NCBI RefSeq assembly: GCF_044647545.1
Contig: NZ_CP172818.1
Length of the DNA: 64,000 bases
Source of the DNA: Escherichia coli
GTDB lineage: Bacteria; Pseudomonadota; Gammaproteobacteria; Enterobacterales; Enterobacteriaceae
Reading direction: 5' to 3' (one strand)
In this document: piece after piece, positions 15,007-63,015 of the stretch
How positions within the stretch are numbered: the first letter of the stretch is position 1
How the letters are laid out: every line of letters begins with the position of its first letter
Translations under genes and position numbers: made by a program
Notes under the pieces: generated by a model
Database searches by the model: none
What the model saw: only the letters and a program-made list of their open reading frames with translations
What the model was told of the DNA's origin: nothing

Positions 15007-15577
15007 GTGCAGTAAACATCAATCTCTTCACATTCTGCTCCCAGCAAATGATCAAGATGCAGCAAATCAGCAATATTCTCCGCGCTTAACATCACACCCG
15101 CGCCAGCACGCTTCTCAACATTTATTCTCCATTGCCCCAGCCATTGCTCAAGTAAACGTAAATCACGTTGAATGGTTTTTTCCGAAACATTTAAATAGCC
15201 GCAATCGTAACAATAGTCGTATATTCCCTTCGAGGTAAAAGGAATCGTAATAATCTGTTTTGTCGCGAGGTAATCATTTGCATTTTTACCCTTATCACAG
15301 ATTAAGAAGCCCTATGAGGAAGAGCTTCAGTTGCCATCTCTGAGGGTAAATATAAAGCAGAATAATTTCACAACAATACTCAAAATATGTCCGTAACCCG
15401 GACAGTGATAAAACAAAGCAAGGCGGTTAAGGGATATTTTTCAGCACAGATCACATTTTCGTGATGAATAATCGTGATCATGCTCGCAAATACGATGGAA
15501 GAAATATTTATTACCAGATGTGAGATTATTTACCGGACACGACACAAAACCATTCGTATCCGGCATTCTTCAATAGA

Positions 15578-19580: not shown

Positions 19581-19675
19581 GGAAGATCGTCGTCTCCGGT
19601 GAGGCGGCTGGACTTCAAATCCAGTTGGGGCCGCCAGCGGTCCCGGGCAGGTTCGACTCCTGTGATCTTCCGCCA
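19581..19675 (+). tRNA. selC: tRNA-Sec (selenocysteine tRNA)
   Basis: 95-nt sequence GGAAGATCGTCGTCTCCGGTGAGGCGGCTGGACTTCAAATCCAGTTGGGGCCGCCAGCGGTCCCGGGCAGGTTCGACTCCTGTGATCTTCCGCCA with long variable arm and anticodon-loop ACTTCAAAT (UCA anticodon). Confidence 0.97.
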
Positions 19676-23856: not shown

Positions 23857-23894
23857 ACCGCTACAACTACTGACCAACGCTTCTTTACCTGATA

Positions 23895-25085
23895 TCAGGA
23901 TTTCTTCATTTTCACCTTTGCGGTGACCAATAACGCCGTCAGCAACATCAATGTGCCGGACAACATCAACGGCGAAGTCAGACCAATATTATCCAGCGCA
24001 TAACCGCCGATTGCCGCGCCACAGGTATTAGCAAGCTGAATAACCGCCACCTGAATAGACCCGGCTTTTTCTGCCTGATCGGCCAGTGAGCGGGTGATCC
24101 ACGTTGACCAGCCGACAGGAACCAATGCAAAAGTTAGCCCCCAGATAATCGCCACGCCGGTAGCAACGATTTTATCGCTTCCCCACAACGTCAGCACCAA
24201 CGCACTCACAGCCAGTATTAACGGCGCGCCTGCTAAGGCCAGTTTTACCGAACGTTTAAGAATGAACGACGAAAGCGACGTACCAATAAAGCTGGCGATA
24301 CCAAAACTCAACAGCACCAGCGTTAAGCCATCCACGCCGAATCCCGCCAGGTTCATATACACCGGGCGAATATACGTGAAGAAAGCAAACTGCCCGGCGA
24401 AAGACATGAAGATGGCGATCATCCCTGCCATCACACCCGGACGTTGTAATAAGCGGAAAGTATTTTGTTTCTGATGCGAGGGTTCGCCTGGCAGCGAAGG
24501 CAATGATTTGATAATCCAGAAAATACACAGCACGCCCATCACCGCCGCCGCATTAAAGACATTGCGCCAACCGATAAGCTCGCCTAAAAAACTGCCCAAC
24601 GGTGCGGCAATCACCAGCGCAATAGAAACCGCGCCGAAGATCACCGACAGCGCCTTCGGCACCGTACGCGGCGGTACCAGACGCATGGTCAGCGACGCCG
24701 ACATCGCCCAGAACCCACCCAGCGCCAGCCCCAGACAGGCACGACCGATTAAAAGCAAACTGAATGAGTTAGCAAAGGAAACCAGCAAGCAGGAGAGCGT
24801 CAGCAAAACGGCAAACAAAATAACAACATAGCGGCGGTCAGTGGCCTGAATGGTCTGGGTAATAAACAAACTGGCAAACATTGCCACAAAGGCGGTCACG
24901 GTCACCGATTGCCCGGCAACCCCTTCCGAAATGCCTAAATCCTGGGCCATTGGCGTCAACAAACTGACGGGCAAAAACTCAACGATAATCAGACAGGCGA
25001 CGCAAAACGCCACCGAGAAAACGGCTGACCAGTTCGGTCGGGTGATGGCATCCGCGCCGCGGTTTTCGGCAATAAATTCACTCAT
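23895..25085 (-). CDS. nepI: MFS purine ribonucleoside efflux pump
   Basis: 396 codons from the ATG at 25085 ([10 protein letters not shown]) inside track ORF 23895-25133. Confidence 0.9.
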
Positions 25086-25339
25086 GGTGTTACCCGTGGC
25101 ATGTTTCAGGGGAAAAGCCGACCACTTTAACATTGAAATGTGTGACGCATTTAACGTTTTTGCAACTTTTACGGTGTTGTGGGAAAAGTTCGAGGCTGCT
25201 CGAAGAAATAAAAATCATAGGGCAAGGTGATATGCATTTTCGCAATGGGGTTGGGAATAAGGGATAAAGTATTCATTGTGATATACTTTAATAACAGGAT
25301 CTCAACGATATACGCGTGTTTAAAACCAAATATTTTGCA

Positions 25340-25985
25340 AGGGAAGCCAGGTCTCAGCAAAAAAGAAAAAAAGTTGCCGGTTTAGAAACGGAACAAGGTA
25401 AAGCTGATGTACTTGGTGGTGGCGTTTTTAAAAAGCGCCTTCACCGAAATCGTGAGCGTGCAATTATTCTGCAAAAGGGGAAAAAAATTGTTTTTACACT
25501 TTTTTATATAAAAAAAAGGATATGTCAAAAATAAATAGCAAGAAACGGCTTGGTTTCCGTAAACTCCAAAACATTTTCCCCTCCCTACCAAAACCCAAAC
25601 AAAAAAAAAGATTAAAACAAAAAAACAAACAGAAATCCCCTAGACCCGAAAAAAAAAAATAAAAAACCCCCGCTTTTGGGCATTCCCAACCCCGCGGCCC
25701 GGGTTTCCCCCCCCCATGCTTTTTCTCCCCAAAAAAAACGTACTTTTACAAAACCCCCCCCACCAGCACGCAAAAACTACAACCCGGTGAAAAAAAAAAA
25801 ACACGGGAAAAAAAAAAAAGGAAGCCACCCCCCTTCGCCCCCATCCCAAAACCAGCGTTTCAACAGCACAAAAAAAGGAAAAGGGGCGCAAACCCCCCAG
25901 GGGTTCTTTAAAAATCCCCAGCATGGTGGAAAAAAAAGGGGGGGGGGGGGGGGAGTAAAAAAAAAAGAAAAAAGTCATACCAGCC
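25340..25985. other. Homopolymer-rich low-complexity block, non-coding; probable artefact or non-native insertion
   Basis: Composition degrades from ordinary sequence into long A, C and G runs (for example G16 at 25938-25953, A-runs of 10-14); no frame resembles a real protein; boundaries approximate. Confidence 0.7.
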
Positions 25986-25987
25986 CC

Positions 25988-26062
25988 AATACCGGATGCG
26001 GCGTGAACGCCTAATCCACCCTACAGGTCAGGCGCGGTCTGTAGGCTGATAAGACGAAGCGG
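25988..26062. repeat. REP (repetitive extragenic palindromic) element, partly degenerate
   Basis: CCGGATGCGGCGTGAACGCC ... GTAGGCTGATAAGACG closely resembles E. coli REP units, with several mismatches in the first unit. Confidence 0.7.
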
Positions 26063-26064
26063 TT

Positions 26065-26517
26065 TTAATGCAGCCAGTGAACGCCCTCGGCAGGCTGAAA
26101 GAACGCGTTATAGCGCATCTGAAAAGCATTAATATCCTGCATTTCAGGTTCGGTTTCGCGCAGAAAACCCAGCGCCAGCCTGACCTGAGCATCAGTAATC
26201 GGCGCGGCAAGGCGGGCTTTTTGTAAAATCCGATGCCATTGCAGCATGTTCTGTTCGCTACCATCGACAATGACAATTTGCCAGATGAGCAACACCTGCG
26301 CGGCGTTTTGCAGGTGCGACTCATCCGGGCGATGCAAATAACGTAAAAATTCGTCACCGGCTGACTTTCCCATTTGATCGACCATCGACTCCACGGGTAC
26401 GACATCGATGTTCAGCCGATCGCTGAGACGGCGAATCGCTTTTCTGGCCCCGGATGTCAGCACCCGAAAACCAATCACAAACACTACCGCCAGCGTGGCG
26501 AGCATTATCCAGATCAT
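26065..26517 (-). CDS. yicN: DUF1198-family protein YicN
   Basis: About 150 codons from the ATG at 26517 inside track ORF 26065-26544; N-terminal TM segment. Confidence 0.8.
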   Translation of the reverse strand: MIWIMLATLAVVFVIGFRVLTSGARKAIRRLSDRLNIDVVPVESMVDQMGKSAGDEFLRYLHRPDESHLQNAAQVLLIWQIVIVDGSEQNMLQWHRILQKARLAAPITDAQVRLALGFLRETEPEMQDINAFQMRYNAFFQPAEGVHWLH

Positions 26518-26569
26518 GAGTTCTCCTGCGTAATCAGAACTCATAATATCTGGAAACCCTCGCCAGTTA

Positions 26570-27904
26570 CTAATCCACCAGAATAATCTTCAGTGCAAAC
26601 AGAGCTGCGACCACCACCACACACAGGTTCAGATCGCGCCAGCGCCCGGTGCACACTTTCATGATGCAGTACGACATAAAGCCGAGTGCAATCCCTTCGG
26701 TGATCGAGAAAGTAAAGGGCATCATCACCGTGGTAATAAATGCGGGCACCGATTCGGTAAAATCATCCCAGTTAACGCGCGCCAGGCTCGAAGTCATCAG
26801 CACGCCAACAAAGATTAACGCTCCGGCGGTTGCGTAAGGAGGAACCATCGCCACCAGCGGTGAGAAGAACATAACCAACAGGAACATAACGCCGACCACA
26901 ACCGCAGTCAGCCCCGTGCGACCACCGACAGCCACACCTGAAGTACTTTCAATATAGGCGGTAACAGACGAGGTACCGATAAACGCACCCGCCACCGAAC
27001 TGACGCTATCAACATACAGCGCCTTATTCATATTGGGGAATTTACCGTTACTATCTATTAAGCCAGCTTTATCAGTTACACCAATTAATGTTCCTGATGA
27101 ATCAAATAAGTTGATCAGCATAAAGGAGAAAATGATACCGGCGAGTTCAAGTGATAACGCGCCGCTCAAATCCACTTCACCAATGACGCCGCTAATATCA
27201 GGCGGAATGGAATAGACGCCGCTAAAATGAACATCACCGAAAAATAATCCACAGCAAGACGTCACCACAATAGAAACAAGCACCGCGGCATGAAAATGAC
27301 GTGATGACAACACGGTTATAATAAAAAACCCTAAAATACCTAACAACACGCCGTGAGAACTTAAATCGCCAATCATCACCAGGGTGTCTTTATTGGCGAC
27401 AATAACGCCAGTATTTTTTAATCCCATTAAGGCGATAAATAATCCGATTCCGCTGGTGATACCAATACGTAAACTTAATGGAATGTTGGAGATCATCCAG
27501 TACCGGATACGAAACAGCGTGAGCAAAAATAGCCCAACTGCGCCCCAGAATATCGCGCCCATCCCGGTCTGCCAGGAGATACCCATCGCCCCCACGACCA
27601 CGAACGCAAAGAAGGCGTTCAGCCCCATTGCCGGAGCCAGCGCCACGGGTAAGTTAGCAAATATCCCCATCGCAATACTGCCGATACCGGCAATCAAACA
27701 GGTGGTAACAAACACCACTTTCGGGTCCATTTGTGCCGCGCCGAGGATTTGCGGGTTCACAAAAACGATGTACACCATGGTTAAAAAAGTGGTCATCCCC
27801 GCAATCAATTCTGTGCGGACGGTGGTCCCATGCTGAGGTAGTTTAAATAATCGCGAAAGCGTCCCTGATTCATTACTCACGTAATCGGTATTGTCATTAT
27901 TCAT
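26570..27904 (-). CDS. adeQ: Adenine permease (NCS2/AzgA family)
   Basis: 444 codons from the ATG at 27904 (MNNDNTDYV) inside track ORF 26570-27982; divergent from ade. Confidence 0.9.
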   Translation of the reverse strand: MNNDNTDYVSNESGTLSRLFKLPQHGTTVRTELIAGMTTFLTMVYIVFVNPQILGAAQMDPKVVFVTTCLIAGIGSIAMGIFANLPVALAPAMGLNAFFAFVVVGAMGISWQTGMGAIFWGAVGLFLLTLFRIRYWMISNIPLSLRIGITSGIGLFIALMGLKNTGVIVANKDTLVMIGDLSSHGVLLGILGFFIITVLSSRHFHAAVLVSIVVTSCCGLFFGDVHFSGVYSIPPDISGVIGEVDLSGALSLELAGIIFSFMLINLFDSSGTLIGVTDKAGLIDSNGKFPNMNKALYVDSVSSVAGAFIGTSSVTAYIESTSGVAVGGRTGLTAVVVGVMFLLVMFFSPLVAMVPPYATAGALIFVGVLMTSSLARVNWDDFTESVPAFITTVMMPFTFSITEGIALGFMSYCIMKVCTGRWRDLNLCVVVVAALFALKIILVD

Positions 27905-34842: not shown

Positions 34843-35149
34843 GATTGGGTCCTGGCGGATAAAAAACGCGCATACCTTAACGATAAGCGCGATGTTGTTC
34901 AAGTTGGATATGGGGTATGTATTCTTAATGATGTTGTCTTATCTCAAAACTTACGAAAGTAACGTTGTAGTTTATTCGAAAAACGAATTATTTGTAGTTC
35001 GATTGCAATATTCCTGAAAAATTTCTCCTCCTTCGAAATCTTTTCAGTAACAAAGATCATCCAAAACCTATAATCTTCACGGAACCTCATTAAGAGATCA
35101 TCCACGAGTCGTTATGAATATAATCCTCACCGTATTCGATAAAAGAAAT

Positions 35150-36737
35150 AAAAAATAAAACTAACAATCTATTGTTTTAAAAAAAAAAGGTTGGGAAAGA
35201 AGGGAAAAACAAGAAAAAAAATTTTTTCCCAAGAAAAAAAAAAACCGGGTAACAACAAACCGGGAAAAAAAAAAAAGGTTCCTGATAAAATACCCCCTAT
35301 CAACCGACAGAAACCTTGAACAACATAATACATTACCTATTCCTGAAATACTGAACAAGAAATAATTTTCGTTTTTTCCAACAATTAAAAATTCCAAAAA
35401 ATAAATCAGCAAAAAAATTCAAAAAAAATTCGGAAATTTTTCCAACCACAAAAAACTTATCCCAAAATCAGATGGCATTAATTTTAACCAAAAAAAGAAA
35501 ATGACCCCCCAATTTCGCCAAAGAAAAAAGGAAAAACCCCAAAAAAAATTTTTAAAATTAAAAAAAAAAAGAAATAATTAAGAATAATGATTTCTATATA
35601 TTAATGGCAACAAACAAATATTAAATTACAACACAACACAAACAAACTTTAAGTAAATTACTATACAAATCAATAACAATAACACCTTAACACACAAAAC
35701 AACCTACATTTCACAGTCATAACGAAAAAAATCATAAAACCACTCAATAAATAAAACACCGAAACAAATATAAAAAACATAAAAAAAAAAAAAAAAAAAA
35801 AACAAGAAAAAAAAAAAAAATAAAATAAAAATAAAAAAAAAAACGAAACGAAAAAATAATAAACAATAAAAGACCCCCACAAACAAACAAATCAAAACTA
35901 CACTCACTCCCCCTGATTGATTAAAAAAACATCTCTCAGATATAAAATACATAAAACAAACAAAAAAATAAATGAAAAAAAACAACAAATAAATAATTTA
36001 ATAATAAAAATAAAAATATTACGCAACAACAACTATCAACAAAAAAAATAAAAAAAAAAAACAAAGATAAGAAACGTAAGAAAAAAAAAAAAAAAAAAAA
36101 AAAAGACGAAAAAAAAAAAAAACTATGAATCCGAACAAGTAAAAAAAAAAAAAAAGAACAAACAATAACCAATCAAAAAAAAAAAAATAAATAAAAAAAA
36201 AAAATTCATTTAAAAAATGAAAAAAACACAAAAAAATAGAAAACAAAAAAAATAAAACAAACGGAAAAAAAAAAAAAAAAAAAAGAAGACTGAAGAAAAA
36301 AAATACTAAAAAAATAATTAATATTAAACCAAAAATAAAAAAAAATAAAAAATAAAAAACTAAAAAAACACAAAAAATCAACAAAAAATAAAAAAAAATA
36401 AACAAACCAAAAAAAAAAAAAAAAAAAAACGAAAACATTAAAATATATAACAAAATAAAAACTAAAAAAACAAAAAACAAACAAAAAAAAAAAAGAAATA
36501 ACAATAAAAAAAAAATTATAAACAACCAAAACAAATATAAAAAAAAAAACGAAAACAAAAAAAAATTAAAAAAAAAAAGAAAAATATAAAAAAAAAGAAA
36601 AAAGAAGAAAAATACAAAAAACAAAAAAATAAAAAAAAAAAAAAACACAAAAAAAAAAAAGAAAAACGAAAACAAGAAAAAAAAGAAAAATGTAAAATCA
36701 GCAAAATTCAGAAAATTTGAAAGAGAAAAAACCAAAA
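35150..36737. other. About 1.6 kb A-rich low-complexity block between uhpA and ilvN, non-coding; probable artefact or non-native insertion
   Basis: Long poly-A runs (up to about 23 nt) with sparse C, G and T; minus-strand track ORFs are poly-Phe/Leu artefacts of the T-rich complement; ends exactly at the ilvN stop codon; start approximate. Confidence 0.75.
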
Positions 36738-37028
36738 TTACTGAAAAAACACCACGATCTTGTTAAACATCGTCGGATTAGACTGATTACGCTGCACTTT
36801 CACCACATCTTCCAGCTTATCGATTTGGCTTATCACCTACTCCAGACGCTGGTCATCCTTGACCAGTAGCCAGATATGGCTTTTGTCGCTGTCCTGAATC
36901 GGCAGGCAGAGAATGCCTTCAACGTTAAAAGCGCGACGGGCAAAAAGCCCACAAACGTGAGTCATTACGCCCGGATGGTTGCGAACGGTGAGTTCGAGAA
37001 TCACGTTGTCATGAGTTGTGTTTTGCAT
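36738..37028 (-). pseudogene. ilvN: Acetolactate synthase I small subunit, reading frame interrupted by an in-frame TAG at codon 64
   Basis: First 63 codons match IlvN; TAG at 36837-36839; the same frame continues [32 protein letters not shown] to the TAA at 36738-36740. Confidence 0.8.
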
Positions 37029-39049: not shown

Positions 39050-39190
39050 TAACAAAAAACCCCGCCGGAGCGAGGTTTCGTCAGTCGCCTGCGGCTGGTA
39101 ACCGCAAAGCACACTGTATTATGTCAACACTGAAAGTATACGTGTTCCGCGCAGAACGCGCAATTTCGGCACGAATTTTGACGTATTTAG
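39050..39190 (-). ncRNA. istR: IstR small RNA region (IstR-1/IstR-2), antitoxin of tisB
   Basis: Minus-strand hairpin plus U-run terminator near 39054-39080; the segment near 39108-39128 is complementary to the tisAB leader near 39370-39390; transcript ends approximate. Confidence 0.55.
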
Positions 39191-42243: not shown

Positions 42244-42302
42244 TGTTGCTCCTTAACTGTTCCTCGCCGAAAAAAGTAGGCCAGGAAAACAGCAATAATG
42301 CA

Positions 42303-43796
42303 TCAGAACTTCTGTTTTTTCTCTTCCACCTTCACCCCTTGTGTCGGTAGGCCGGTGTCATAGTCGCGTACCACTGGCGAATAGCCATCTTGTGGGCGTG
42401 GACGAAACGCCCCCATCCAGCGCGGTCGTGCATCTTTACGCCACGGACGCAGACTCCATTGGTAACTGCGGAACGGATCGCGAATTTTGTCCATGTAATC
42501 CAATAAGGCGTCATGCATTTTGCGGCGAACGTCGGCAAAACGGATATCATCGATCAGATTATGCATTTCATTTGAATCATTACGGCGATCGTAAAGTTCA
42601 TCACTGGTGAAGAGGTTGAGTACCAGTTTAAAGTCATCCGTCACCCAGCAACGCACCGGAATAAAACCGCCAAAGCTGTCATGCTCAATCTCGTAGCGGT
42701 TAAATTCCACCATTACACCGCGTGGCTCTTTCACGGCAAGGATATTTTCCCCCGGCAGAATCTCTGGTTTTTCAATATCTGCCAGCGCCATCATTGTCGG
42801 CAGTAAATCGATATGACTGACTGGCGTATCGACCTGTCGCCGCTCCCCTTGCGGCGAACGGATGATCAGCGGAATGCGGGTGATGTCGTCATACATCGCC
42901 GCCCCTTTACTGATCAGCTTATGTGCGCCCATCATTTCGCCGTGATCGGAGGTATAAATAACCCACGTATTTTCACGTTGCTCTGGCGTTAAGGCATTGA
43001 TGACCCGTCCGATTTGGTCATCAACAAAGTCATTGCAGGCAAAATAGAGCGGATGGTGATAAAGCCCGTCATCACCGACTGGCGATGGCATCGCCTGCGC
43101 CCATAAGCGGTGATGTTCCGGTTTGTTCGCCAGGTCATCCTGTGATTTCTCGCCAAGTTCGTAGTAAAAATCAGCGTATTTCTCTAAATACTCCACCGGA
43201 CAGGTGAACGGGTGATGCGGCTCATCATACGAAACCACCATCAGGAAGGGTTCCTCGGCGCGCGCGGGCTGTTGCAGAAAATCTACCGCCCGATTGCTGA
43301 TGCGGTGCGCCCAGGTGAAGGTTTCGTCGATATGGTTCGCCTGTAAATCCTCAACGCTGTTTAGGCCATTGCGCCACAGGCTGATCTCTTTTTCCGTCAG
43401 TTCGCTAAGGTAGTTCGCCCCATCGAACCAGTAATCAGCGTCCCACTCCGGCGGACACTCGCCAGTGCCGAAATAGTCATGACCGTCGAGATGCCATTTG
43501 CCGATGTAACAGGTGTGATAGCCCGCATCCTTAAAGTAGCGTCCCATAGTGGAGATGTTTTTGCCCGGCGCGACGTTGTTGGTCCACGGGCCGGACTGGT
43601 TAGCGTAGATACCGGTAAACAGCCCGGCGCGCGCTGGTGTACAAACCGGTGAACAGGTGTAGGCGGAATTAAAGCGAATACTTTCCGCCGCCAGACTATC
43701 AATATTTTGCGTATTCAGCGGCTTACCGCTATAGCAACCGACCATATTGGTGGCCTGGGTATCGGTCATGATGAACAGAAAATTGGGGCGTTTCAT
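42303..43796 (-). CDS. yidJ: Cys-type sulfatase
   Basis: 497-codon ORF with sulfatase signature CTPARAGLFTG (C-x-P-x-R formylglycine motif). Confidence 0.9.
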   Translation of the reverse strand: MKRPNFLFIMTDTQATNMVGCYSGKPLNTQNIDSLAAESIRFNSAYTCSPVCTPARAGLFTGIYANQSGPWTNNVAPGKNISTMGRYFKDAGYHTCYIGKWHLDGHDYFGTGECPPEWDADYWFDGANYLSELTEKEISLWRNGLNSVEDLQANHIDETFTWAHRISNRAVDFLQQPARAEEPFLMVVSYDEPHHPFTCPVEYLEKYADFYYELGEKSQDDLANKPEHHRLWAQAMPSPVGDDGLYHHPLYFACNDFVDDQIGRVINALTPEQRENTWVIYTSDHGEMMGAHKLISKGAAMYDDITRIPLIIRSPQGERRQVDTPVSHIDLLPTMMALADIEKPEILPGENILAVKEPRGVMVEFNRYEIEHDSFGGFIPVRCWVTDDFKLVLNLFTSDELYDRRNDSNEMHNLIDDIRFADVRRKMHDALLDYMDKIRDPFRSYQWSLRPWRKDARPRWMGAFRPRPQDGYSPVVRDYDTGLPTQGVKVEEKKQKF

Positions 43797-45674: not shown

Positions 45675-49021
<3,347 letters not shown>

Positions 49022-52426: not shown

Positions 52427-52840
52427 TTAGTTGATTTCGATACGGCGCGGTTTTTTCGCTTCCGGAATCACGCGTTCAAGATCGATATACAGCAGACCAT
52501 TCACCAGGTTAGCACCACGAACATGAATGTTCTCAGCTAACTGGAATTTGCGTTCAAAGTTGCGTTCAGCGATGCCCTGGTACAGATAGGTGCGCTCTTT
52601 TTGTTCGTCGGCGTGAGCACCTTTCACCACCAGCAGATTATCCTGGGCGGTAATTTCCAGTTCGCTCTCAGCAAAACCAGCCACAGCGATAGCAATGCGG
52701 TAATGGTTTTCGTCTACCAGTTCAACGTTATACGGAGGGTAGCCGCCATTACTCTGGCTCTGGTTGTTTTCTAAGTGGTTAAACAAACGGTCAAATCCAA
52801 TAGCAGAACGGTAAAGCGGGGATAAATCAAAGTTACGCAT
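52427..52840 (-). CDS. ibpA: Small heat shock protein IbpA
   Basis: 137 codons from the ATG at 52840 ([12 protein letters not shown]); alpha-crystallin domain. Confidence 0.93.
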
Positions 52841-52930
52841 AATCAATAGCTCCTGAAATCAGCGAGAATGTAAGACCTTCCACAATGGACAGGTCAGGTA
52901 GCCAGAACACCCATCAGGCGCGTCCTCATC

Positions 52931-55859: not shown

Positions 55860-57148
55860 CCAACGCGCTTCACATCGCCCACCAGCAGGATGTAAGAGAG
55901 CGCGCCAATCAACGCAACGGCGGAGATATAAACCAGTGCAGGCGCGAAACCGTAACCCTGCGCCAGGTACCCCACCACCAGAGGAACGGTGATGCCGCCC
56001 AGACCACCGACAAAGTTAAACACGCCGCCGGTTAAACCAATCAGGCGCATCGGTGCCAGAGAAGAGACCAGCGACCAGGTAATCGAAGCAAAACCGTTGC
56101 CGAAGAATGCCAGCGCCATCAGGCACATAATCATCATCGGATCGTTAGTGTAGTTAGCGCCCATAATGCAGGTGGAGATCAGCAAGCCGCAGATAATCGG
56201 CGTTTTACGCGCAAAGCCCAGTGAAAAGCCCTTACGTACCAGCAGATCCGCGACCCAGCCAGAGAGCAGGACGCCGACAAACGCCGCGAGGAACGGTACC
56301 GTGGTCATAAAGCCTGCTTTCAGCGCCGTGATTCCTTTTTCCTGGGTTAAATAGTTCGGGAACCAGGTTAAAAAAAACCACAGTGTAGAAGCCACCGCAA
56401 ATTGCCCAAGATAGACACCGATCAGTTTACGATGGAACACCAGTTTCCAGTCTTTGGCTGTTAACGGCTGACGCGCCTCTTTTTTCACCGGCGCATCACC
56501 ATCCACCAGACCGCCGCCATCACGAATGTAATCCAGTTCAGCTTTGCTGATGCCTTTAGTCAGGCGCGGCGGCTGATAAACCTTAAACCAAATCAGCGAC
56601 CAGATAATGCCGATACCACCGGTGACAATGAACACCCAGTGCCAGCTCAACATTTCCTGAATCCAGATCAGCAGCGGAGTCAGAAACGCCAGACCGACAA
56701 ACTGACCAGACGTATAAAAACCAACGGCAGAAGCGCGTTCATGTTCCGGGAACCAGCTGGTCACCATCCGGTTATTGGTCGGGAAAGCGGGCGCTTCGAA
56801 AATACCGGTTATCGCGCGCAGACCAATTAATGACATTAATCCCGTGGCAAAGCCCTGGAATAACGTCGCCACTGACCAGCCAAATATCGCAATAAAATAA
56901 GTCACGCGTGAACCTACGCGATCTAAAAACCAACCGCCGGGGATCTGACATAGCGTATAAAGCCAGGCGAAGGCCGAAAATACATAGCCCATTTCCGCTT
57001 TCGTAATACCGAACTCTTCCTGAATATGGGCGGAAGCCACGGCCAGGTTAGCGCGGTCAACATAACAAATGACCACCGTAATAAAGATCATCACCAGCGT
57101 CAGATAACGCCGACGCCCCGGCTTTGCTGCATTAACGGGAATATCCAT
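55856..57148 (-). CDS. dgoT: D-galactonate:H+ symporter (MFS)
   Basis: 430 codons from the ATG at 57148 ([15 protein letters not shown]). Confidence 0.93.
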
Positions 57149-57267
57149 AGCGAGCTTTCTCCAGATTTTGGGCATAGCGAAGCCGCTCACCATGCCCTGT
57201 AATTTACAGAGGGTTATATTTTTGTATTGCTGTTTTAGTGCCCGATGAGGGGCTTACGTGGCAGGAA

Positions 57268-58416
57268 TTACCACTCTGCTACGCTGTTATCTTCATGACG
57301 CCAGAGCGGATTACGCCAGTCCGGGGCATTTTTACTGAACTCAATAACTTTAGCTTCGTCGATTTCCACGCCTAAGCCCGGTTTCGTTAGCGGTTTAAAG
57401 AAGCCGCCAACCATGCTGAAGTCTTCTTTGTTTTTCACAAAGTCGAGTAACTCCGCGCCTTTGTTGTAATGAATTCCCATACTTTGTTCCTGAAGTACGG
57501 CGTTATAGGAAACAAAGTCGATATGCAGACAAGCTGCCAGTGCAATCGGTCCGAGCGGACAGTGCGGCGCAAGGGTCACGTCATAGGCTTCTGCCATTCC
57601 GGCAATTTTGTAGCATTCGGTAATACCGCCTGCATGAGAGAGATCTGGTTGCAGAATCGAAATACCGCCCGCCTCCAGCACGCGTTTAAAATCGAAACGT
57701 GAGAACATGCGTTCACCCGCCGCCAGAGGAATATGCGTTTGTGCCGCCAGTTTCGGGTAGTATTCGGCCTGTTCCGCCAGCACCGGCTCTTCAATAAACA
57801 GCGGGCGATACGGTTCCAGTTCTTTAATCAGTACTTTCGCCATCGGCGCGCTGACGCGACCGTGGAAATCAAGACCAAACTCAATCTGATTGCCAAAAGC
57901 TTCACGAATTTGTGCCACGGTGTTGACTGCCGCATCTACCGCGCGGGAGTTATCAATTAGCCCCAGTTCTTCACAACCGTTCAGTTTGAAGGTATCGAAG
58001 CCGATTTCGCGCAGGGTTTTAATGCCGTCGATAACATTCGCCGGACGATCGCCGCCGACCCAACTGTAGGCTTTAATTTTGTCACGAACCAGGCCACCCA
58101 TCAGTTGCCAGACCGGCGCATTCAGCACTTTACCTTTGATATCCCATAACGCCTGGTCGATCCCGGCGATGGCGCTCATCAGGATCGGACCGCCACGATA
58201 AAATCCGGCGCGATACATCACTTGCCATAAGTCATTGATGCGCGATGGATCCTGACCAATCAAATAGTCACTCAGCTCGTGAACTGCCGCTTCCACCGTA
58301 CGAGCGCGGCCTTCGATCACGGGCTCGCCCCAACCGACCACGCCTTCATCGGTTTCAATTTTCAGGAACATCCAGCGGGGAGGTAAACGATACGTAGTAA
58401 TTTTGGTGATTTTCAT
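57268..58416 (-). CDS. dgoD: D-galactonate dehydratase (enolase superfamily)
   Basis: 382-codon [35 protein letters not shown]. Confidence 0.95.
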
Positions 58417-59030
58417 TGCACTGCCTCTCGATACGCCTTAACAAATGCTGCTGCCTGCTGCGCGGTGCGTTCTACGGATTGCCCGGCGCGATAGAGATCG
58501 CTGCCTAAGCCCGCCCCTGCACAACCTGCGTCTATCCACTGCGCCAGGTTTTCTGGCGTCACACCGCCAACGGCAAAGACTGCGATGTCCTGCGGTAATA
58601 CCGCTTTTAACGCTTTGATGTATTGCGGACCAAAAGCCGATGACGGGAATATTTTCAGCGCCTGCGCGCCCGCGTCGATCGCGGTAAAGGCTTCAGTCGC
58701 CGTCGCGCAGCCGGGGCAAACGGTCATGCCATAGCCCACCGCGCGGCGGATCACTTCACTATGGATATTGGGCGTAACGATGAGCTGGCAGCCCATCCTG
58801 GCGAGCGTATCGACCTGTTCAGGTTTCAGTACCGTACCTGCGCCAATCAACGCCTTATCGCCGTACGCATCAACGATGGCGGGAATGCTTTTCTCCCATT
58901 GAGGGGAATTCAGCGGGATTTCAACCGCGTCGAACCCGGCGTCAATCACCGCGCCAACATGCGCCAGCGCCTCGTCGGGCGTAATACCGCGCAAAATGGC
59001 GATCAGCGGGAGTTTAGTTTGCCACTGCAT
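58413..59030 (-). CDS. dgoA: 2-dehydro-3-deoxy-6-phosphogalactonate aldolase
   Basis: 205-codon KDPG-aldolase-family ORF; overlaps dgoD and dgoK. Confidence 0.93.
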
Positions 59031-59892
59031 GAGCGATGCTCCTTATACCAGCCTGAAATGCCTTGTCGCCCGCTACCACCGCCACGTCGCAACCCATCGC
59101 CTGAAAGGCTTGCTGGTAGCGCGCGGTCAGCGATGTTCCGGCGACAAGGGTGATGGCGTGTTGATGGGTCACATAGTCGCGCATACTGGCAACCTCTGCG
59201 CCAATCAACAAACCAGAGAGAAATTCGCTGACCTGTTCACGGGGAAGCGTTCCCAGCACATGCGATGCGCGAACTTCAAAAAGCTGCGGCAATATGGCGG
59301 GCGCATTAAGGCCACGCTCAAGGCCAGCCGCGAAGGCATCGGCAGAGTTTTCCTGCGGCGGCAAACCTGCGCCAATCAATGAGTGATTTAACAGTAAATG
59401 ATGTAATTCACCGGTCATTACGGTGCGAAAATCGTTGATTTGCTGGCTATCGGCCTGCACCCATTTGCAATGCGTACCGGGCATGACATAAAGAGAGGAA
59501 GGAGCCAAAGCACGCGCGCCGATCAATTGTGTTTCTTCGCCGCGCATCACATTGTGGTTATCGTCATGAGAAACGCATAATCCGGGAATAATCCAGATAT
59601 TGTCGCCAACAGACGTTAATTGTTCGCCAATAGATGAAAAACGGGCAGGAACAGATAAATACGGTGCAACTTTCCAGCCGACATTGCTGCCGACCATTCC
59701 TGCCATCACCACTGGCGTATTCTCTTCACGCCAGTCGGCCGTGACTTCTGCTAACACCGCAGCCGGAGATTTTCCGTTCAGGCGCGTGACGCCTGCTTCT
59801 GATTGCCTGCTCTCCAGGCAGTGGTCGCCCTGATAAAGCCAGGCGCGCAGATTGGTCGATCCCCAGTCAATTGCGATGTAGCGAGCTGTCAT
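59014..59892 (-). CDS. dgoK: 2-dehydro-3-deoxygalactonokinase
   Basis: 292-codon ORF MTARYIAIDWGSTNLRAWL. Confidence 0.93.
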   Translation of the reverse strand: MTARYIAIDWGSTNLRAWLYQGDHCLESRQSEAGVTRLNGKSPAAVLAEVTADWREENTPVVMAGMVGSNVGWKVAPYLSVPARFSSIGEQLTSVGDNIWIIPGLCVSHDDNHNVMRGEETQLIGARALAPSSLYVMPGTHCKWVQADSQQINDFRTVMTGELHHLLLNHSLIGAGLPPQENSADAFAAGLERGLNAPAILPQLFEVRASHVLGTLPREQVSEFLSGLLIGAEVASMRDYVTHQHAITLVAGTSLTARYQQAFQAMGCDVAVVAGDKAFQAGIRSIAHAVAN

Positions 59893-60578
59893 GTGATTTC
59901 CTTTAACCTTCGTGTCGAGCTGGCGATCATGGTAAGCGCCGCCTGCTCTGCCGCATCGCCGTCCTGATGCCGTATCGCATCAAACAGCGCCTTATGTTCC
60001 TGGAGCGTTTGCGGCATGTTGGCCTCATCACCCATCCAGGTTCGTTCAAATACCGCCCGCTGCAGCGAACTGATCGCAATGCTAAGTTGCTGTAACACCG
60101 GGTTATGCACCGACTGCAGCACCGCCTCGTGGTAGCGAATATCCGCTTCGTTAAACGCTTCGCGGTCCTGATTGTTGGCAATCATCTCGTTCAGCGCTGA
60201 TTCAATCTGCGCCAGATCGCTGGAAGTCGCGCGCTCTGCCGCCCAACGGGCAATCGCCGGTTCCACCAGATTTCGCACTTCGCTCATTGCACTGATAAGC
60301 CGTGGGTCGTAGTCGTTTTCCAGCACCCATTGCAGTACGTCAGTATCGAGGTAATTCCACTGATTACGCGGTGCCACAAACGCCCCGCGATAACGTTTCA
60401 TTTCAATCAGCCGCTTCGCCATCAGCGAACGGAACACCTCACGGATGATGTTGCGCGAGGTTGCAAACTCCTCACAGAGCTCCGCCTCAGCCGGAAGCGG
60501 CGAGCCTGGTACGTATTTGCCGTGAACGATCTGTTTACCCAGCGTAATGACGATGCGATCGGTTTTATTGAGAGTCAT
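59889..60578 (-). CDS. dgoR: GntR/FadR-family repressor of the galactonate operon
   Basis: 229-codon ORF with N-terminal GntR HTH and FCD domain; first gene of the dgo operon. Confidence 0.92.
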   Translation of the reverse strand: MTLNKTDRIVITLGKQIVHGKYVPGSPLPAEAELCEEFATSRNIIREVFRSLMAKRLIEMKRYRGAFVAPRNQWNYLDTDVLQWVLENDYDPRLISAMSEVRNLVEPAIARWAAERATSSDLAQIESALNEMIANNQDREAFNEADIRYHEAVLQSVHNPVLQQLSIAISSLQRAVFERTWMGDEANMPQTLQEHKALFDAIRHQDGDAAEQAALTMIASSTRRLKEIT

Positions 60579-60644
60579 GGAGAGTCCTTGTGCTCTGTAT
60601 GTTCTTCTCTACTTTACCCCGATCGATGCATAACGCGGCAACTT

Positions 60645-60717
60645 TGTAGTACCAGCGTGATGACGTTCGCGTTTTCCGTGTGCGTAATGTAGTACAAGCT
60701 TATATTACTGTACTACA
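60645..60717 (-). promoter_or_regulatory. dgo promoter region with repeated GTAGTACA-type operator half-sites
   Basis: TGTAGTAC at 60645, TGTAGTACA at 60688 and the inverted copy TGTACTACA at 60709, upstream of dgoR. Confidence 0.65.
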
Positions 60718-60855
60718 ATTTAGATCACAAAAAGAACAATGCATAAAAAAATGACATGCGTCGGGCAGAAATCTGAAAAGGGATAACAGGCGCTAAACAG
60801 GAGGGAAAGAAGAGTATGCTTTCAACGACTTAGCTACTCGTTTAAAGGATTAATC

Positions 60856-62881: not shown

Positions 62882-63015
62882 GATAATCACCTGTAAAGCG
62901 TTACGTGTTGACCCAAAAAGTATAGATCTGCGGGATGATAATTGCGGATTGCAGAAATAAAAAGGGCGGAGATGATCTCCCGCGACTAAGTCATTTTATC
63001 AGCAACAAAAAGCCA

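Follow-up and report, generated by a model that had tools for sequence, protein, structure and literature searches.

Probably natural wear of a REP pair at the yicN 3′ end of Escherichia coli, beside an accessory segment with signs of technical degradation

Introduction

BIMEs are bound by IHF, DNA gyrase or Pol I and are subject to cleavage by TnpA-REP. Each REP consists of a GTAG head and an imperfect palindrome, and a BIME joins a REP to an inverted REP through a linker (PMC8266576). One preprint describes REPs in 3′ UTRs as partial terminators and stabilisers of mRNA, and reports that the presence of REPs between convergent genes correlates with higher expression of both genes (bioRxiv 10.64898/2026.03.23.713779).

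In this study we examine a REP-like unit at 25988-26062 of a 64,000-nucleotide stretch of the E. coli chromosome that runs from rpoZ/spoT to gyrB (hereafter the window). The unit adjoins a homopolymer-rich block, and the original prediction took its departures from the canonical palindrome for errors at the tail of a quality gradient that spreads from that block. By comparing the unit and its surroundings with complete E. coli genomes, we arrive at another explanation, which we hold with high confidence as a whole: the unit is a natural, worn REP pair that may have a weak 3′-UTR role, and the adjoining block is the product of technical degradation, for which a K-12-like guide or model is the likeliest cause.

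Throughout the text positions are counted from the first base of the window. The nearest complete genome is that of E. coli FDAARGOS_497 (NZ_CP033850.1), and the first 4.5 kb of the window were compared with K-12 only. The canonical y-type REP that serves as yardstick is the reverse complement of the consensus given in the original prediction. The features discussed, including the two long degraded stretches that we call block 1 and block 2, are collected in Table 1.

Table 1. Coordinates of the REP pair, its neighbors and the degraded segments of the window.
Feature	Position	Strand	Remarks
Indel segment 1	15027-15554		Three single-base indels in 528 bp that are kept
Accessory segment without K-12 counterpart, with block 1 (indel segment 2)	25180-25989	+	RelE-family toxin and HTH_3/MqsA-like antitoxin cassette, corrupted
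REP1, y-type REP	25991-26024	-	GTAG head intact; 30/34 identity to consensus
Linker AGGTCAGGCGCGGTCT	26025-26041	.	~16-17 nt; separates two head-to-head GTAG motifs
REP2, degenerate, presumably z-type inverted REP	26042-26077	+	GTAGGC-TGATAAGACG...; 0 differences to FDAARGOS_497
yicN	26065-26517	-	DUF1198 protein, intact; stop codon 26065-26067
Block 2 (indel segment 3)	34904-36737	+	AT-rich uhpA-ilvN accessory island, corrupted
ilvN allele	36738-37028	-	N57K and stop at codon 64; 63-aa product
Indel segment 4	42254-42303		yidI indel site; GTA lost, one and two extra A
Indel segment 5, 25-nt A-rich patch ATTTCCCACAAAAAACAAAAAAAAA	46780-46804	+	Replaces 506 bp of 6-phospho-alpha-glucosidase gene
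Indel segment 6	62980-63012		Between yidB and gyrB; 9-bp loss breaks a perfect terminator-like hairpin

Layout of the REP pair

The minus-strand sequence of REP1, GTAGGGTGGATTAGGCGTTCACGCCGCATCCGGT, aligns to the canonical y-type REP without gaps and with 4 mismatches over 34 nt, and a search that allowed at most 3 mismatches to the same yardstick gave no match at this place. By our own estimate a 34-mer with at most 4 mismatches is expected by chance about 1e-9 times per 128 kb, so the likeness of REP1 to the consensus is not a chance one. The conserved GTAG that precedes the palindrome is present (26024-26021 on the minus strand). At the foot of the stem three base pairs are lost (GCC to GGT), the bulge reads TA/GC as against AA/GC in the canonical REP, and the stem-loop that is left, GGAU..GGCG-UGAA-CGCC..AUCC, folds at -11.3 kcal/mol (z = -2.8), compared with -21.3 kcal/mol (z = -4.9) for the canonical REP. 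A degenerate REP-like unit with a weakened stem next to yicN is what the original prediction had described, and on both points our comparison bears it out. An Rfam scan at the REP returned no match.

The REP1 site is extragenic, with the end of the antitoxin gene on one side and the yicN stop codon on the other. REP2 is more degenerate than REP1, and its distal arm is made of the final yicN codons and the stop codon; we take it to be of the z-type from a by-eye comparison with the consensus. The CTAC at 26021-26024 and the GTAG at 26042-26045 face each other across AGGTCAGGCGCGGTCT, which gives the BIME layout of opposed REPs with a short linker, and the linker together with the GTAG heads is able to form a stem of ~10 bp in the plus-strand fold. 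With this layout, within and just beyond the 3′ end of yicN, the pair belongs to a familiar and unremarkable kind of element. A worn REP or BIME there is routine in E. coli genomes and carries little biological weight.

Comparison with other E. coli genomes

Going right from the block, the last base at which the window and FDAARGOS_497 disagree is 25985; after it the count of differences is 0, from 25986 to past 27400. Matches to a 116-nt query laid across the block edge were found in 5367 of the 5426 complete genomes, 111 records reaching at least 99% identity; the best of these alignments set in at base 25986 of the window. The departures from the consensus can be followed one by one in the same way: ATCCACCC ('ac') is common to the window and K-12, and the 'ta' departure of REP1 is part of the 100%-identical match to FDAARGOS_497. 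The K-12 copy of REP1 has 5 mismatches to the consensus, with GTCG replacing GTAG, so the window copy with its 4 is the closer to the consensus; over the REP region the window and K-12 differ at 5 of 83 positions. These comparisons argue for 25988-26062 as a genuine, naturally degenerate BIME-like REP pair, whose departures from the consensus are very probably inherited polymorphisms of the locus rather than sequencing errors.

Where cassette-bearing and cassette-less genomes are aligned, homology picks up again precisely with the first base of REP1, at 25990 (TACCGGATG...), so that the REP forms the right-hand joint of the accessory segment. The REP at this point may have been a target of recombination or insertion.

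Possible role of the REP pair

The neighbors of the pair are yicN and a convergent antitoxin gene in this lineage, and yicN and nepI in K-12. By analogy with known REPs, our best guess is that the pair acts as a weak terminator or mRNA stabiliser: as a weak 3′-UTR hairpin it would shield the yicN mRNA against 3′ exonucleases and be a partial barrier to transcription, which would be heading toward the convergent antitoxin gene in this lineage and toward nepI in K-12. Ribosome stalling has been reported for REPs that lie very near a stop codon.

Any structural role of the pair would be a weak one, since the 87-nt region folds no better than its shuffles (z = 0.09 on the yicN-mRNA strand and -0.94 on the plus strand), and this makes a functionless relic a serious alternative, that is, a decaying BIME which persists through its overlap with the yicN stop codon and the shortness of the intergenic spacer. 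A relic would also account for the lost basal stem, for the 5-10% by which the locus differs among strains and for the K-12 copy, which is even without the GTAG head reported as essential for TnpA-REP recognition (PMC8266576). It accords less well with the fact that 5367 of 5426 genomes keep the pair in this position, with the survival of the ~10 bp central stem, and with the correlation between convergent-gene REPs and higher expression of both genes (bioRxiv 10.64898/2026.03.23.713779). On balance we lean away from a relic, though with little firmness, and keep the weak 3′-UTR role as our reading of the pair.

Block 2 and the ilvN 3′ end

In block 2, G dropouts begin at ~34920, ~17 nt after the end of K-12 homology. 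Before 35160, 26 of the 39 events are single G deletions, with T losses and changes to A coming next. Collinearity with the FDAARGOS_497 island fades by ~35380-35420, and what remains is A-rich junk (up to 80% A), ~1590 nt of it in place of 3085 bp, which reaches to the very edge of the ilvN stop codon. Of 35290-35960, a distant BLAST could place the first 88 nt and no more, and the right end of the block, when aligned to the FDAARGOS_497 island, the K-12 spacer and the DeoR/ribokinase island, scored no better than shuffles.

The ilvN 3′ end on the far side of this edge had been thought to be error-dense as well. Mismatches are indeed more frequent there, with 10 substitutions relative to FDAARGOS_497 within 36754-36960 and essentially none over the next 9.8 kb, but all 10 are natural allele states, found in contigs that encode the 63-aa product or in the ilvN′ fragment of FORC_031; among them are two synonymous changes that seemed unique at first sight. 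A random error would agree with a natural state at ~4% per ilvN site, by our own estimate. The exact 63-aa IlvN occurs in public assemblies, with index entries in 64 blocks of the collection and at least 23 contigs that encode it, and related ilvN alleles adjoin the DeoR/ribokinase island in ~1600 complete genomes. The idea that the stop codon and the amino-acid changes are errors was accordingly dropped: with all ten bases natural and the 63-aa protein public, these are natural variants and not base-calling noise.

The combination of these variants is a different matter. The exact nucleotide haplotype is absent from 5421 genomes (best match 97.0%), and a 131-nt piece of it gave no match in the JGI metagenomes. 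It is a fine-scale mosaic, in which FDAARGOS_497-type and ilvN′-type alleles are interleaved every few bases in a manner that fails a simple tree, and it begins exactly at the block edge. Such a pattern could have come from the same corruption process as the blocks, whether through a collapsed two-copy consensus or through a model that inserted population alleles. We consider this origin rather unlikely, though not far-fetched, given that all 10 changes are natural states, that the protein is matched exactly in public contigs, that gene conversion and recombination beside islands are common and that 0 of the 10 changes is an indel or a run into a long homopolymer, unlike the errors in the blocks. 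The haplotype itself may stem from real recombination or from the collapse of two copies into one consensus.

Block 1 and its right edge

The homopolymer block to the left of the REP spans about 25273-25985. In around 1700 E. coli genomes nepI and the REP are separated by genes for a RelE/ParE-family toxin and an HTH antitoxin, and K-12 has 41 unrelated bp at this site. The cassette of FDAARGOS_497, in which the two genes overlap, gives Pfam matches to RelE (PF06296, 4e-28) and HTH_3 (7e-8) and a weak MqsA-like match. Block 1 is collinear with this cassette at 74% identity (646 nt against 672 bp, with 501 matching bases), from which it departs by 142 substitutions, 29 deletions and 3 insertions. 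The substitutions are of a peculiar kind, in that 127 of the 142 copy a neighboring base; replacement is most often by A (69), followed by C (46), G (18) and T (9), and it yields runs such as G16 and A12, as against runs that never exceed 5 in the template. Block 1 hence combines a natural collinear template with an error spectrum that is non-biological, and the collinearity and the neighbor-copying together mark it as something other than an insertion or natural DNA. That the blocks arose by corruption and not by biological insertion had been proposed in the original prediction, and this part of it is upheld, in block 1 by the collinear cassette and the neighbor copies and in block 2 by the passage from G deletions to ~80% A.

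The errors are unevenly spread along the block. They start at 25273, ~94 nt past the end of K-12 homology at 25179, and after a burst at 25357-25385 and a clean stretch at 25386-25470 the error rate climbs to 30-50% and persists up to 25985; it is highest in 25950-25974, with 13 errors per 25 bp (~10-35 bp short of the edge), and the sequence is perfect from 25986. Block 1 would seem to be a left-to-right degradation, on the plus strand, of the RelE/HTH cassette; its end at 25985 lies five bases short of the point where K-12 homology and the REP set in. The decay of block 1 and block 2 alike is one-sided, with errors that accumulate from the left within accessory DNA and break off sharply at the right edge (25985/25986 and 36737/36738). 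A gradient toward both blocks, as had been proposed, is therefore real on the left (5′, plus-strand) side, inside DNA that K-12 lacks, but not on the right, where the edges are sharp.

To the right of block 1 the differences to FDAARGOS_497 in successive 200-bp windows are 0,0,0,0,0,0,0,0 and those to K-12 are 7,7,2,3,7,5,2,5, a flat profile of natural divergence. Mismatch density is thus uniformly low right up to a sharp boundary, and the sequence is clean from 25986, the outcome that the original prediction had named as speaking against itself; the REP unit, which it had described as error-dense, is free of differences to the nearest genome. It is highly improbable that the departures of the REP are base-calling or corruption errors at the tail of a quality gradient: the unit does lie 1-5 bp from the junk edge, and it is 4 positions off the canonical REP and 5 of 83 off K-12, but a natural genome matches it with zero differences over 25986-27400, 111 records reach at least 99%, the 'ac' change recurs in K-12 and the density of mismatches to K-12 is flat over 1.6 kb. 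Being identical to natural genomes and lying at a sharp right edge, the REP is not evidence of sequencing decay. Ordinary strain variation was taken for error, and the yardstick for such judgements should be the nearest relative and not K-12.

Distribution and cause of the degradation

All indels relative to FDAARGOS_497 sit in six segments that have no counterpart in K-12 and range from 25 nt to 1.8 kb, whereas the ~56 kb of K-12-homologous sequence show no indel relative to FDAARGOS_497 and 56 natural-looking substitutions. Of the 1595 sites that vary in a three-way comparison of the window, FDAARGOS_497 and K-12, 1539 carry the FDAARGOS_497 base in the window. The accessory segments share G/T dropouts with A/C homopolymer fill, and their junk breaks off 0-5 bp short of the return of K-12 homology (25990, 36738 and 46805). 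The 46780-46804 patch falls precisely on the point where glvG of K-12 has been cleanly deleted between AGTGGTTC direct repeats.

Clean K-12-homologous DNA next to badly rendered accessory DNA suggests a step that relied either on a guide resembling K-12 or on a model whose training covered the core genome, and the agreement at 1539 of 1595 sites implies that a real strain sequence was available to the process behind the text of the window. The cause would lie in reference-guided consensus, gap filling, or deliberate or computational corruption, and not in a property of the DNA. For a corruption that was systematic and guide-dependent, such that segments without a K-12 counterpart were hit and K-12-homologous DNA was spared, we see about an even chance. 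We know of no nameable standard pipeline that gives exactly this error pattern. Two more specific candidates were set aside: a left-justified, out-of-register majority vote of noisy reads, which would act as a low-pass filter, does not fit an underlying island that is richest in T on the plus strand (33.8% T, 30.5% A) and junk with up to 80% A, and free generation by a sequence language model is contradicted by the agreement with FDAARGOS_497 at 1539 of 1595 sites.

An 83-mer over the edge between the junk and the REP had no match in GTDB representative genomes or JGI metagenomes, and the junk of the blocks is absent from 5426 genomes. The notion that the homopolymer and A-rich blocks are real DNA, either low-complexity insertions or accessory genes hypermutated in vivo, draws on their coincidence with horizontally acquired, AT-rich DNA, but we give it next to no credence in view of the intact natural cassette with which block 1 is collinear, the neighbor-copied errors and G16 and A12 runs, the absence of the junk from these genome and metagenome collections, the same error mode in segments of 25-50 bp (the broken terminator hairpin included) and block ends no more than 5 bp from resumed K-12 homology.

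Several other features of the arrangement deserve mention. At 15016/15017, 10 nt past the yicH stop codon, the window jumps into the interior of a BglG-family antiterminator gene and omits a 6.7 kb PTS/aldolase island that is present in FDAARGOS_497; this junction occurs in no complete E. coli genome and has no match in GTDB representatives. At 23857-23901 the window lacks the 18-kb yicS-nepI island of FDAARGOS_497, which carries type III secretion remnants, eilA and iatC, and the junction is formed by a K-12-like 40-bp spacer with variants of its own (best natural match 98.5%), between flanks otherwise identical to FDAARGOS_497. The 56010-60828 tract (cbrA-dgoTDAKR) has 45 substitutions relative to FDAARGOS_497, mostly transitions and about half of them matching K-12, with no indels, and looks like a natural recombination tract. 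Three Rfam elements are intact and expected at their loci, namely tRNA-Sec (selC) at 19581-19671, the istR antitoxin sRNA beside tisB at 39054-39183 and a ROSE_2 thermometer upstream of ibpA at 52834-52906. The overall arrangement of the window is reproduced by no complete genome, and natural differences and artefacts in it are not fully separable at every site.

The practical consequences are plain. The corruption wipes out accessory genes (the RelE/HTH cassette, the uhpA-ilvN island and part of glvA), and any 'novel' low-complexity features or missing genes called in the corrupted stretches would be spurious. If a real pipeline lies behind it, such as K-12-guided consensus or gap filling or a model-based 'polisher' that breaks down on accessory sequence, this would be a recognisable class of artefact that selectively destroys accessory genes in records, and one that can be screened for.

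Comparison with known systems

Low-confidence read tails, gap-fill and consensus artefacts of deposited assemblies are the nearest match for the blocks, with which they share directional decay, homopolymer smearing, single-base losses and an abrupt return to perfect sequence. They differ in that the errors here are limited to sequence that K-12 lacks, segments as short as 25-50 bp included, in that the junk lengths of 25, 646 and 1590 nt are out of proportion to the true 506, 672 and 3085 bp, and in that the A-fill is not the local majority base.

The FDAARGOS_497 homologue of the cassette, which is uncorrupted, resembles a RelE/ParE toxin with an HTH (Xre/MqsA-like) antitoxin in the toxin-first layout of higBA. 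The window cassette departs from such a system in being unreadable, with 74% identity and no ORFs kept; the toxin is frameshifted in FDAARGOS_497 too. At ilvN the product of the window is identical to that of the known truncated alleles, annotated as a 63-aa 'ACT domain-containing protein', whereas its nucleotide haplotype is a mosaic that matches none in the 5421 genomes or the JGI metagenomes.

The REP pair itself is set apart from the canonical REP by its missing basal stem and about half the folding energy, and from other REPs and BIMEs of E. coli by a second, heavily worn REP that runs into the yicN stop codon and by a region that as a whole folds no better than shuffled sequence. What it has in common with them is the GTAG head, the ~34 nt imperfect palindrome at 30/34 to the y consensus, the inverse pairing of two REPs across a short linker and the position at the 3′ end of a gene.
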